Virus record (IMG/VR): IMGVR_UViG_3300032323_002909
Coordinates: 1 to 64,000 of that record
Origin: a virus
Direction: 5' to 3' (one strand)
Length of the DNA: 64,000 nt
Under the pieces are notes generated by a model. The model worked only from the letters and a program-made list of their open reading frames with translations. It had not been told where the DNA came from and did not search any database. This document shows positions 8,312-26,624 of the stretch, one piece after another (position 1 is the first letter of the stretch; each line of letters opens with the position of its first letter). A program made the translations under genes and the position numbers.

Positions 8312-8389
8312 GCCTTGGTATCGGAACTGACTTCTAATCAGTAGCACCGTAACGGATCAATGGAGGTTCGAGTCCTCTCCAAGGCACCA
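8312..8389 (+). tRNA. atypical D-armless tRNA-Arg(TCT)-like RNA
   Basis: Perfect GCCTTGG/CCAAGGC acceptor plus ACCA, ACTGA-CTTCTAA-TCAGT, canonical T-arm; only 7 nt in place of the D-arm. Confidence 0.7.
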
Positions 8390-8618: not shown

Positions 8619-8798
8619 ATGAGACAATACACAAACCGATTGATTGAATTAGTAGAGGAAGGTATCTTAGATGCTGAAAACGTAATGAGAGCTTGTCTTA
8701 GTTATATGTCAGAGCATGAAGTTCAAGACCTATGTGAGAGTGAAGGATATATCGAGGAAGAGGAAGAAGATGAATCTGGTATTCCTTGGGAAGAATAA
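8619..8798 (+). CDS. small acidic protein (paralog of 15149..15337)
   Basis: MRQYTNRLIELVEEGILD...ACLSYMSE; Glu-rich tail; start set by cassette motif. Confidence 0.75.
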   Translation: MRQYTNRLIELVEEGILDAENVMRACLSYMSEHEVQDLCESEGYIEEEEEDESGIPWEE

Positions 8799-8848
8799 AA
8801 ACCACATTAAAGTAATTGCGCTCCCTGCAACAACAACCATAAACACAC

Positions 8849-9130
8849 ATGACTAACCAAATTGATACAAGCAACCCACGTCACGCCGCAGCATACACGC
8901 TTGCAGCAGGACATTTTCTCTCTGACCTTGGAGGCTACGAGGGTATGGAATTGGAAACCCTTCTCAACCTCGATGAGGATGATGCAACTCCAGAGCAGTT
9001 GGCGAAACGCAGCAAGATCATTCTGTGGGGTGTCTTTGAAAGAGGATGTGACCGTATGGATGATCCATATCTTTACGTTGCTGACATTATTGAGATGTTG
9101 GCACTTGATTTTCTCAACTTCAACGCCTAA
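8849..9130 (+). CDS. hypothetical acidic protein
   Basis: 93 aa, bounded by cassette motifs. Confidence 0.65.
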   Translation: MTNQIDTSNPRHAAAYTLAAGHFLSDLGGYEGMELETLLNLDEDDATPEQLAKRSKIILWGVFERGCDRMDDPYLYVADIIEMLALDFLNFNA

Positions 9131-13832: not shown

Positions 13833-13951
13833 AAACCACATTAGAATCGTGCCATGCCTGAAATTAACGACAACGACCTACAAGACTACATCGACTACAT
13901 CGTTTTCGGTGTGACAAAATGACGCAGTAAAGACCACAATAGAATAACGCT

Positions 13952-14565: not shown

Positions 14566-14714
14566 AAGAATAGTGAGACAAAATGACGCAGTAAAAACTA
14601 TATTAAACTAACGAAACGCGCTATCGAAAAAATGTTGGTCGTGACATAGCGCGACAAAATGACACACTTACTGTGACAAAATGACGCAGTAAAGACCACA
14701 TTAGAATAATTTAT

Positions 14715-14790
14715 GCGCTTGTAGCTCAGTGGTTAGAGCAGGGGTCTCATAAACCCTTGGTCACTGGTTCAAATCCAGTCGGGCGCACCA
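14715..14790 (+). tRNA. tRNA with CAT anticodon (Ile2-like; Met not excluded)
   Basis: GCGCTTG/CGGGCGC, TAGCTCAGTGGTTAGAGCA, CTCATAA loop, TTGGTC, CCA; resembles bacterial tRNA-Ile2. Confidence 0.9.
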
Positions 14791-14818
14791 CTCATAAAAA
14801 CCACATTAAACTACACCC

Positions 14819-15148: not shown

Positions 15149-15337
15149 ATGTCACGCTACTACACAAACCAACTGCTGGAAATGATCGAAGAAGGTATCC
15201 TTGATAAGGACACTGTTATTAACGCCTGTCTCTCATACATGTCTGAAGCTGAAGTTCAGGACATGATGGAATCGAATGAGTTCATCGAAGAAGAGGAAGA
15301 AGAGGAGGACGAGGAAGAAGAGGAAGAAGAGGAGTAA
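15149..15337 (+). CDS. small acidic protein with poly-Glu tail
   Basis: Paralog of 8619..8798. Confidence 0.75.
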   Translation: MSRYYTNQLLEMIEEGILDKDTVINACLSYMSEAEVQDMMESNEFIEEEEEEEDEEEEEEEE

Positions 15338-15358
15338 AAACCACCTTAAACTATTGCC

Positions 15359-15524
15359 ACGCCAGTTAATCACTGGCTAGTCGGGGGTGCGAAGCCGATG
15401 ATGAAGCACTGTGATTGGTGTAAAACACTGTAGGTAAATCCTCGCTAGGGGGAGCGTCATCCTTATGTCCCAGAGGGAAACCGTTGAAGGGGCATAGTCT
15501 TTCGAGACAAGGGAATCCCCACCA
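15359..15524 (+). ncRNA. putative structured ncRNA ending in acceptor-like stem plus CCA
   Basis: Occupies a whole cassette with no ORF; at least 7 hairpins; GGGGGT(15383)/ATCCCC(15515)-ACCA. Confidence 0.6.
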
Positions 15525-15554
15525 TCTTAAAAACCACATTAAACTGATGGCGTT

Positions 15555-15674
15555 ATGAAATACAAACACTGCACTATCCTCAAGGCAATCACTGGTTACA
15601 ATGTATATTCTTGCAATGACATTCACAATGTCTCTTCTATTACAGAAGCAAAAACACTCATCGACAGTCTGTAA
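15555..15674 (+). CDS. hypothetical protein (39 aa)
   Basis: Cassette ORF. Confidence 0.5.
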   Translation: MKYKHCTILKAITGYNVYSCNDIHNVSSITEAKTLIDSL

Positions 15675-15702
15675 AAACCACATTAAACTACTACCACACC
15701 AT

Positions 15703-16026
15703 ATGAAATACAACTGGAAACCTGTTATTAATTCGTTCTTCACCATCGCACTCGCCCATGGGTTCACCCTCCACACTGTAGACAACGGTGATGGCGAGGA
15801 TGTTCTTATGAATACCATCGAGGAAGCAGTGGAAGAAGTCGCTGCCACGGATCAATCTCACGTGGTTCTACTTGCTCCTGATGGCAAGCGTGTGTGGTTC
15901 TTTCTGGTTCTTGGCAACGAGCCATACGAAACGATCTGTGACTACTCTGTCTATGATCTGGCAGACGATGTGCATGCGGAGTTCTCAGACGAATGGGAAG
16001 GCAAACCCTGCCCACAAATCGCATAA
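15703..16026 (+). CDS. hypothetical acidic protein
   Basis: Cassette ORF; start corrected by motif. Confidence 0.7.
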   Translation: MKYNWKPVINSFFTIALAHGFTLHTVDNGDGEDVLMNTIEEAVEEVAATDQSHVVLLAPDGKRVWFFLVLGNEPYETICDYSVYDLADDVHAEFSDEWEGKPCPQIA

Positions 16027-25109: not shown

Positions 25110-26624
25110 ATGAAGTCATTTAAAAATTTTTACACTGAACAATATATTGAGGATTTCGATCAAAATTGGCAGAAGGCTGTGAACTCGTCCGAAGAACTTC
25201 GGGTGGCATTGGATTTGATCAAAAATATTAAATCCAAACACCAAGGGGAGATTTATATCGTCGGTGGTGTTCCTAGAGATATTTTAATGGGTAATGATAT
25301 CGATGATGTGGACATGGCGACCAATATTCCATTTGAAAAGATTGCACAAGATTTTGATATTAGAAACATTTCAAAGAATGATTCTCAGCCAGTGTATACC
25401 ATTTTATGGAAAGGTTATAATTTTGATTTGGCAAAATTTAGAGAAGATTCTGGTGATCTTGGTAGACAAAACAACGTATCTACTGAAACGGATTCATTCG
25501 AAGCAGATACCCGTAGAAGAGACTTAACGATCAATTCTTTTGGACTTGATGAAAATGGTTCGATTGTCGATTATCAGGGCGGTCTAGAAGATCTTAAAAA
25601 CAAGATTGTTCGTGCTGTGGGTGATCCTAAGAAAAGATTTTTGGAAGATGCTACCAGAATTTTGCGGGTATTTCGATTTGCAGCTAAAATGGATTTTGAT
25701 ATTGAAGAGAATACCAAAAGAGCAGCCATCGAATTGAAGAAATTACTCCAAGATCCCAAGGCAATTTCGAAAGAAAGTATCTCAAAAGAATTTTACAAGT
25801 CTGCCAAAAGTGGAAAAACACTTGCAAACTTTTTGAAAAAATTACAGGACACTGGAATTCTACATGATATTCTTCCAGAGTTTACTAGCATGGAAGGCTT
25901 TGACCACGATCCCCAACACCACCCCGAAGGAGAGTCTCAAGTTCTGGGTCATATATATGAATGCTTGAGAGTTTCACCTTACACAGATCCTGTCATCAAT
26001 TTAGCAGTTCTGTTTCACGATTTCGGCAAAGCTACGACTCGTGGTAGTAAACCAAACGGATTTAGTAATTATTATGGGCATGAAGCAGCGGGTGTTCCCA
26101 TCGTGGAAAATATTTTCGAACGTTTACTCTTCACTGAATTATCTCCGAGTGATAAGAAAAATATTCTGAGCGCAGTGGGCAAGCATATGCTTGTGCATAA
26201 TCTCGATAAATTAAACATTAAAACATTGACGAAATTAATTCAAGATCCATCATGGGAAACTATCAAAGCTGTTGGATATTGCGATGAAGCATCAAGAGGA
26301 GATCAATTATTCAACAAACAAGAGTTTGAAGATAAAATAAAAAGAGCCGAAGAAAAAGTTTCCAATATTGGAGCCAATCAGGATGATACTCGTAAGCGAT
26401 TAAAACAATATTTCGATGGTAAAAAATTAATGGAATGGTTTCCTGTTCTCAAAAATGACAAGACCAAATTCAAAGATATTGTGGAGGCATTGAACGAATA
26501 CGTATTGGAAACTCTTAATAAAGGTAATACGCCCAACGATGATGAGATGCGAGAAATCGCAGGTGATATATTAGGGACTGGTAGATTCAATGAATCTTTC
26601 AAAAGATATTTAAAGTCTCTATAA
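25110..26624 (+). CDS. cca: CCA-adding tRNA nucleotidyltransferase with HD domain
   Basis: YIVGGVPRD, DVDMAT, RRDLTIN, EDATRILR, HHPEG, LFHDFGK motifs. Confidence 0.9.
   Translation: MKSFKNFYTEQYIEDFDQNWQKAVNSSEELRVALDLIKNIKSKHQGEIYIVGGVPRDILMGNDIDDVDMATNIPFEKIAQDFDIRNISKNDSQPVYTILWKGYNFDLAKFREDSGDLGRQNNVSTETDSFEADTRRRDLTINSFGLDENGSIVDYQGGLEDLKNKIVRAVGDPKKRFLEDATRILRVFRFAAKMDFDIEENTKRAAIELKKLLQDPKAISKESISKEFYKSAKSGKTLANFLKKLQDTGILHDILPEFTSMEGFDHDPQHHPEGESQVLGHIYECLRVSPYTDPVINLAVLFHDFGKATTRGSKPNGFSNYYGHEAAGVPIVENIFERLLFTELSPSDKKNILSAVGKHMLVHNLDKLNIKTLTKLIQDPSWETIKAVGYCDEASRGDQLFNKQEFEDKIKRAEEKVSNIGANQDDTRKRLKQYFDGKKLMEWFPVLKNDKTKFKDIVEALNEYVLETLNKGNTPNDDEMREIAGDILGTGRFNESFKRYLKSL

Follow-up and report, generated by a model that had tools for sequence, protein, structure and literature searches.

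A candidate small structured RNA family encoded in or near the tRNA genes of otherwise dissimilar phages

Introduction

What does a phage gene cassette encode when no gene can be found in it? The question is raised by positions 15359-15524 of the DNA stretch analyzed here, which we call the window and which consists of the first 64 kb (64,000 nucleotides) of the IMG/VR record IMGVR_UViG_3300032323_002909 (150 kb, ~73% complete). The source is a distant, uncultured T4-like myovirus, the portal protein of which is 27-30% identical to its best matches in cultured phages, with Pseudomonas phages, T4-like cyanophages and Vibrio phages among them. The phage encodes a ribonucleotide reductase, a helicase and its own CCA-adding enzyme, a tRNA nucleotidyltransferase at 25110-26624 (PHROG 2244, E 7e-60). 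A previous interpretation made from the letters alone, hereafter the sequence-only reading, was that the segment encodes a compact multibranch RNA with an acceptor-like closing stem and a CCA end, which might act as a decoy for tRNA-targeting nucleases or synthetases.

Results

A Cassette Without an Open Reading Frame

The motif that precedes the segment (Table 1) occurs in 22 copies between 8.8 and 20.5 kb of the window, as compared to 0.2 copies expected by chance. These copies open small single-gene cassettes, in which the start codon is located 6-15 nt downstream, and a variant of the motif is also found upstream of tRNA-Leu and tRNA-Met. The motif presumably acts as a promoter, as judged from its sequence and placement. 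The cassette under study spans 15336-15529 and is delimited by the motifs at 15337-15352 and 15530-15545, between which we found no plus-strand open reading frame of at least 25 aa, in agreement with the sequence-only reading that the cassette holds no usable open reading frame.

Searches for known RNAs at the element were negative throughout. ARAGORN recognized four tRNAs in the window, none of which is located at 15359-15524, and neither its tRNA nor its tmRNA search returned anything at the element. None of the 4227 models in Rfam 15 matched, and the only scores obtained were chance C/D-box scores of 10-14 bits, where the thresholds are 45-54. The tRNA and tmRNA models gave no match even at E <=10, the YrlA, riboswitch and ribozyme models gave none at the element, and no T arm is present in it. 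The sequence-only reading, which had pointed to an Rfam search as a check, thus stands in that the cassette matches no known family and is best described as an uncatalogued, non-coding structured RNA gene.

The energy of the fold is uninformative by comparison. The z-scores against shuffled sequences were -0.75 for 15359-15524, -0.46 for 15383-15524 and -0.3 to -0.5 in the homologs described below, which is unremarkable, so that a single sequence proves nothing either way. Since the folding energy is no better than that of shuffled sequences, the case for a structure rests on covariation, for which the evidence is strong.

A few observations were made in the surroundings. There is a second mini-cassette without an open reading frame at 14592-14700, in which an 8-bp inverted repeat (14617-24 / 14646-53) comes after the motif (14592-14609) and in which no start codon precedes the next motif, the one that heads tRNA-Met. 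Some of the cassette motifs are fused at their 5' side to a box of about 20 nt (GACAAAATGACGCAG...), found at 13913-13937, 14577-14600 and 14675-14699 with a partial copy at 14653. The motif upstream of tRNA-Met is one of those fused to the GACAAAATGACGCAG box, which might provide certain cassettes with an additional promoter or regulatory element. Finally, the Rfam tRNA model scores 41.5 bits at 8312-8386, where ARAGORN made no call.

Homologs in Three Phage Lineages

A blastn search against 50,697 cultured-phage records gave no match to the element. The portal protein led to 17 relatives, of which one carries a copy, namely the complete 197,682-bp genome G010, in which 138835-138971 is 80% identical to the element over its 5' 90 nt, with several single-base indels and with flanking genes that differ from those here. 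When metagenome contigs were scanned for the most conserved block of the element, two additional true homologs were identified, in contigs L082 and L083, where the element occupies the space between tRNA-Thr(UGU) and tRNA-Gly(UCC) within a tRNA array of 11 members or more. The L082 copy likewise had no match in Rfam, including the tRNA model at E <=1. Look-ups via a neighboring DUF5824 protein added six more contigs of the L082/L083 lineage; in two of these, L144 and L136, the RNA sequences are identical to each other and differ from that in L083 solely in the leader immediately 5' of the RNA, and the neighbor protein in L144 is 86% identical to its counterpart in L083. The known family thus comprises five distinct sequences from three lineages, with a length of 135-139 nt in the homologs as compared to ~164 nt here.

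Attempts to extend the family further were unsuccessful. Pattern scans of viral, metagenome and genome contigs gave only chance matches; the same applies to searches with covariance models, which covered 45 related IMG/VR records and 79 pattern loci, and no further member was identified in the more distant phages with a DUF5824 protein. Sequence look-ups in other DNA stretches, made with this RNA and with its L083 homolog, likewise turned up no additional copy. Furthermore, the family was not found in four other near-complete relatives, which indicates that it is dispensable. No protein is common to all three lineages in their available DNA, and no partner protein was found.

The divergence of the RNA does not follow that of its hosts. 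The three lineages are roughly equidistant at 63-70% identity: the portal protein of this phage is 86% identical to that of G010, the two RNA copies are 70% identical, and each of them is 66-68% identical to the L083 lineage. The RNAs of close relatives are thus as divergent as those of unrelated phages, and their flanks differ, which suggests that the RNA has been exchanged as a mobile cassette. When L083 (9.7 kb) was compared to this 150-kb genome, the RNA was the only nucleotide similarity, and the RNA-carrying phages are in general without similarity at this level except in tRNA genes and, for G010, in one endonuclease gene.

What the lineages have in common is the neighborhood of tRNA genes on the same strand. 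Here the element follows tRNA-Met at a distance of 570 nt; in G010 it is 2.3 kb downstream of a tRNA cluster on the same strand, and in L082 and L083 it is inside the array, so the association with tRNA genes that had been drawn by analogy with the stable non-tRNA species of T4 holds for all three lineages.

The genes that follow the element are a different matter, and they bear on whether it acts in cis, as a leader, a riboswitch or a processing or stability module for neighboring genes or tRNAs. In G010 the gene immediately 3' of the element encodes a small membrane protein and lacks a cassette motif, and no intrinsic terminator was found 3' of the element here; both observations would fit such a role. 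Yet the downstream neighbor is tRNA-Gly in L082 and L083, a promoter motif and an unrelated 39-aa open reading frame in this phage and the membrane protein in G010, and no riboswitch family was matched. Because the downstream neighbor differs in every lineage, the RNA is not the leader of one particular gene and cis-regulation is improbable.

Covariation Supports a Chain of Hairpins

A covariance model (R2) built solely from two sequences of the L083 lineage and a draft structure gave full-length matches to the copy in G010 (74.5 bits, E 1.6e-16) and to the locus studied here (55.2 bits, E 8.8e-12), where the match spans exactly 15361-15524. RNAalifold, run on the resulting alignment, returned the helices H0, P2, P3, P4, P5 and P6 (Table 1). 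Across the five distinct sequences, 98.3% of the pair cells are paired, as compared to 38-46% in slid controls, and 17 of the 36 pairs are compensatory, as compared to 0-4 in the slid controls and with none of 500 shuffles reaching the observed value, although these counts, from three independent lineages and five distinct sequences, are inflated by the fitting of the alignment to a structure. P2 was outside the fitted model, and its three compensatory pairs therefore represent independent evidence. Unconstrained minimum free energy (MFE) folds of G010 and L083 recovered the P5/P6 domain unaided, and the homology-based fold of the sequence studied here is 2.3 kcal/mol above its MFE. The sequence-only reading had looked to homologs for covariation, and in this respect it was borne out.

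Table 1. Features of the predicted RNA and of the motif that precedes it, in window coordinates.
Feature	Position	Strand	Description
Cassette motif, presumed promoter	15336..15352	+	A-rich box and -10-like hexamer; stop codon of the preceding 62-aa gene lies partly or wholly within it
H0, 5'-terminal hairpin	15361..15377	+	15361-66 / 15372-77, 6 bp, 5-nt loop
P2 hairpin	15380..15399	+	15380-84 / 15395-99; 10-nt loop with invariant GGUG
P2-P3 linker	15400..15405	+	Nearly invariant in all lineages
P3 hairpin	15406..15421	+	15406-10 / 15417-21, loop GUGAUU
Proposed H0-P3 loop-loop kiss	15368..15371 with 15413-15416	+	3-4 pairs possible in every lineage
Most conserved block, linker and P4	15422..15445	+	P4 = 15430-34 with 15440-42 and 15444-45
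P5 5' strand	15448..15452	+	Pairs with 15516-15520
One-sided P5-P6 bulge	15453..15459	+	Core AGCGU invariant in all lineages
P6 region	15460..15514	+	Outer pairs 15460-62 / 15512-14; inserted hairpin 15464-96; UUCG-capped tip 15497-15508
P5 3' strand and unpaired tail	15516..15524	+	15516-20 paired; ACCA = 15521-24; covariance-model match ends at 15524

The predicted fold begins with a chain of hairpins (H0, P2, P3 and P4), after which a long bulged helix (P5/P6) secures the 3' end. H0 begins 8-9 nt past the -10-like hexamer and is followed by an invariant linker (15378-79); one of its pairs is compensatory (U-A in L082 and L083, G-C in the other two lineages) and most of the rest never varies. 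In P2, three of the five pairs are compensatory, with GUCGG/CCGAU, GUAGC/GCUAU and GUGAG/CUCAU across the three lineages. The proportion is four of five in P3, the stems of which differ between L082 and L083 and pair in both, even though the two sequences are otherwise 94% identical. The loops of H0 and P3 probably kiss, as suggested by their complementarity and by a single compensatory event, in which the sole change in the H0 loop, an A-to-G substitution in G010, is accompanied by a matching U-to-C substitution in the P3 loop. The most conserved block includes a 12-nt core and a 7-nt core that are identical in all lineages and that were used as the search pattern; P4, which is part of it, is a predicted helix with pairs that never vary among the lineages.

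Compensatory changes are frequent also in the 3' helix, where they affect four of the five pairs in P5 (GGGGG/UCCCC here, GACGG/CCGUC in G010 and UGUGG/CCACA in L082 and L083) and five of the nine pairs in P6. The UUCG tip of P6 is conserved. The hairpin TATGTCCC/GGGGCATA (15464-71 / 15489-96) is inserted in this phage alone and absent from all homologs, and the P6 region can here adopt two alternative pairings that are equally compatible with the data.

The extent of the RNA given in the sequence-only reading holds, and several of its hairpins recur in this fold. GCCAGT/ACTGGC (H0), AGG/CCT (within P4) and the UUCG hairpin are kept in the homologs, while GTGC/GCAC, TGGTG/CACTG and CGCT/AGCG find no comparative support; the TATGTCCC/GGGGCATA hairpin exists, with the reservation that it is lineage-specific. 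The multibranch architecture was not sustained. It depended on a closing helix formed by GGGGGT (15383) and ATCCCC (15515), which ViennaRNA favors with a pair probability of ~0.5 when given this sequence alone but which the homologs contradict: G15383-84 form the last two pairs of P2, G15385-87 and U15388 are in the P2 loop, and the C-run at 15516-20 pairs with G15448-52.

Other pairings and motifs were considered and discarded. A long-range helix 15380-88 / 15437-45 in our initial structural model is compatible with the alignment, but one of its strands is invariant and it was replaced by P2, with its three compensatory pairs. A 7-bp helix between 15398-15404 and 15455-15461 is perfect here and absent in L082 and L083. 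A stretch with repeated GAUGA resembles a kink-turn or C/D box, but it is not conserved in G010 and the Rfam scores are at the level of noise. Likewise, the look-alike of a hammerhead core (CUGAUGA ... GAAA) begins with A rather than C, is altered in G010 and matches no ribozyme model.

The pattern of substitutions also bears on the possibility that the conservation reflects a protein. A minus-strand frame of 160 aa (15366-15848) and a frame in G010 that continues into the next gene were both rejected on account of single-base indels and structure-preserving substitutions; coding conservation is ruled out because single-base indels separate the homologs. A tiny peptide gene of 11-13 codons, running from a conserved double ATG (15398) to conserved stops in the block at 15429-15438, deserves a separate comment, since the frame is present here, in L083 and in L082, and in a longer version in G010. 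The residues are not conserved, however, while the nucleotides covary in a manner that keeps P3 paired, and indels of 1 nt and 4 nt make the frames differ among the homologs. In addition, the ATG is 46 nt from the motif rather than 6-15 nt as in the real cassette genes and the conservation reaches well beyond the frame, which makes a peptide gene very improbable.

A decayed cassette, or a site that matters at the DNA level and has no function as RNA, is already disfavored and we give it hardly any credence. The weak folding z-scores and the patchy distribution among relatives speak for it. They are opposed by compensatory changes in four helices, by RNA sequences that are identical beside a protein gene that has diverged by 14%, and by the presence of the element in phages that otherwise share no nucleotide similarity except in tRNA genes and, in G010, one endonuclease gene.

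The CCA Tail Is Confined to One Lineage

The sequence-only reading had placed an acceptor-like stem followed by A-CCA at the end of the RNA. In the comparative fold, the partner of the 3' tail helix is an internal strand, that of P5, and not the 5' end of the RNA, so the proposed 5' partner was the wrong one. The four bases 3' of P5 are ACCA here, UAAC in G010 and AAUU in L082 and L083. Since ACCA follows P5 only in this phage, a CCA end is not a feature of the family, and with a tail that is not conserved the mimicry of a tRNA end is unproven. In the absence of a T arm and of matches to the tRNA and tmRNA models, the acceptor-like closing stem with its A-CCA finds no support. Judging from the sequences, the ACCA tail presumably represents a lineage-specific feature rather than the core of the mechanism.

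A modified version of the idea is that the P5/P6 stack and ACCA imitate the acceptor/T minihelix of a tRNA. The RNA would be matured or extended by RNase P and the CCA-adding enzyme, and its target would be either the CCA enzyme, a synthetase or a nuclease directed at tRNAs, which it would trap. Some features are suggestive: A-CCA follows directly after P5 here, the 3' flank of the element is similar to the one that follows tRNA-Met of this array (14787-14812), and the 3' strand of P6 continues straight into that of P5 much like a T stem continues into an acceptor stem. The bulge after P5 furthermore reads like positions 8-11 of a tRNA (U8-A9-G10-C11) after an acceptor strand. This phage encodes a CCA-adding enzyme, and since many tRNAs in G010 are without an encoded CCA, including all four nearest to the element, a CCA could in principle be added after transcription. 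Against this, there is no CCA in the tails of G010, L082 and L083, P6 is capped by UUCG rather than by a T loop, P5 has 5 bp rather than 7, the tRNA and tmRNA models are silent even at the permissive threshold, and the conserved 5' domain would be lost if RNase P cleaved at P5. We consider a mimic of the tRNA 3' end unlikely, while a decoy for tRNA-targeting enzymes is a possible, if speculative, role for the RNA.

As an observation on the tRNAs of G010 (L126-L135), the four in the cluster at 141306-141727 are without an encoded CCA, and 11 of the 16 others (112905-124256) have one, so that tRNA genes of both types are combined in these phages.

A bolder variant, which we regard as a long shot, is that the RNA in its entirety represents a rearranged mimic of a tRNA, which is CCA-tailed by the phage enzyme and which could be charged or could soak up a host defence nuclease directed at tRNAs. 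The kiss between H0 and P3 would then take the role of the D-loop/T-loop elbow, P5/P6 and the bulge would serve as the acceptor/T minihelix, and the CCA would be added by the CCA-adding enzyme of the phage itself after trimming. If this were true, the RNA would be an anti-defence decoy carried as a mobile cassette.

Discussion

Our comparisons give good support to 15361-15524 as a conserved, non-coding and folded small-RNA gene of phages, with relatives that together make up a family absent from existing catalogues. The reading that we favor, to which we assign a probability of about 0.65, is that it encodes a stand-alone structured RNA of ~164 nt and that the small family to which it belongs is carried by unrelated phages, among or close to their tRNA genes.

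The closest analogues are RNAC and RNAD of T4, also termed species 1 and species 2 (rnaC 139 nt, rnaD 119 nt), two stable RNAs for which the function is still unknown (PMC3014915, PMC9697503). They are small, stable non-tRNA RNAs and, like the RNA described here, they are encoded together with phage tRNA genes; their size is similar. There is a hairpin at the start of rnaD as well, and rnaD ends in CACCA; rnaC differs in having a true T arm, of which there is none in this RNA. The analogy does not extend to homology, which we rejected: an R3 covariance model run against the T4 tRNA region with filters off reached no more than 6.4 bits and gave no meaningful score over rnaC or rnaD, nhmmer --max gave no match, and only 7-8-nt words are common to the sequences.

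Two other groups of RNAs invite comparison. GOLLD and ROOL are, like this RNA, structured RNAs of unknown function carried by phages, and they often adjoin tRNA genes. They form homo-oligomeric complexes, and their length is several hundred nucleotides as compared to the 135-164 nt of the family described here; their Rfam models have no match at the element. The tRNA-like modules of bacterial Y RNA-like RNAs (YrlA) and of tmRNA resemble it in having an end-joining helix that leaves a 3' tail and in their tie to tRNA-processing enzymes, but no mimic of a T arm or D arm is seen in this RNA, and the YrlA, tmRNA and tRNA models did not match.

How might such an RNA be produced and what might it do? 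In the phage studied here, it would be transcribed from the promoter of its own cassette, with a start at about 15359-15361. In the phages represented by L082 and L083, it might instead be co-transcribed with the tRNAs and freed by the cleavages through which the tRNAs on either side mature, whereupon exonucleases would trim the 3' end back to P5, which would halt the trimming. The ends of the RNA are in both cases predicted ones. Since there are invariant blocks in phages that share almost nothing else, we infer that the RNA acts in trans via a conserved partner, and one hypothesis is that this partner belongs to the tRNA or translation machinery and that the RNA serves as an RNP scaffold or a decoy, a niche that it would share with RNAC and RNAD of T4.

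The interest of the family lies in the combination of a compact fold that is backed by covariation and carriers with almost no other sequence in common. The invariant single-stranded blocks point to a conserved cellular partner, and this partner, if found, could reveal a role in infection, for example in tRNA maturation, in the takeover of translation or in counter-defence. The family may also be viewed as a second, unrelated example beside the stable non-tRNA RNAs in the tRNA regions of T4, and it has features that can be tested.

The tRNA arrays that harbor the element in the L082/L083 lineage contain other segments that may be of interest. On the minus strand of L083, the gap between tRNA-Gly and tRNA-Gln (8743-8964) holds a tRNA-like sequence with a T arm and a long internal insertion, for which ARAGORN made no call; an interrupted or otherwise unusual tRNA is conceivable, as is a further small RNA. 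On the minus strand of L082, a 374-nt gap in the tRNA array (1105-1478) contains an apparent small open reading frame rich in Cys/His motifs, which possibly encodes an HNH-type homing endonuclease, by analogy with segB in the tRNA cluster of T4.
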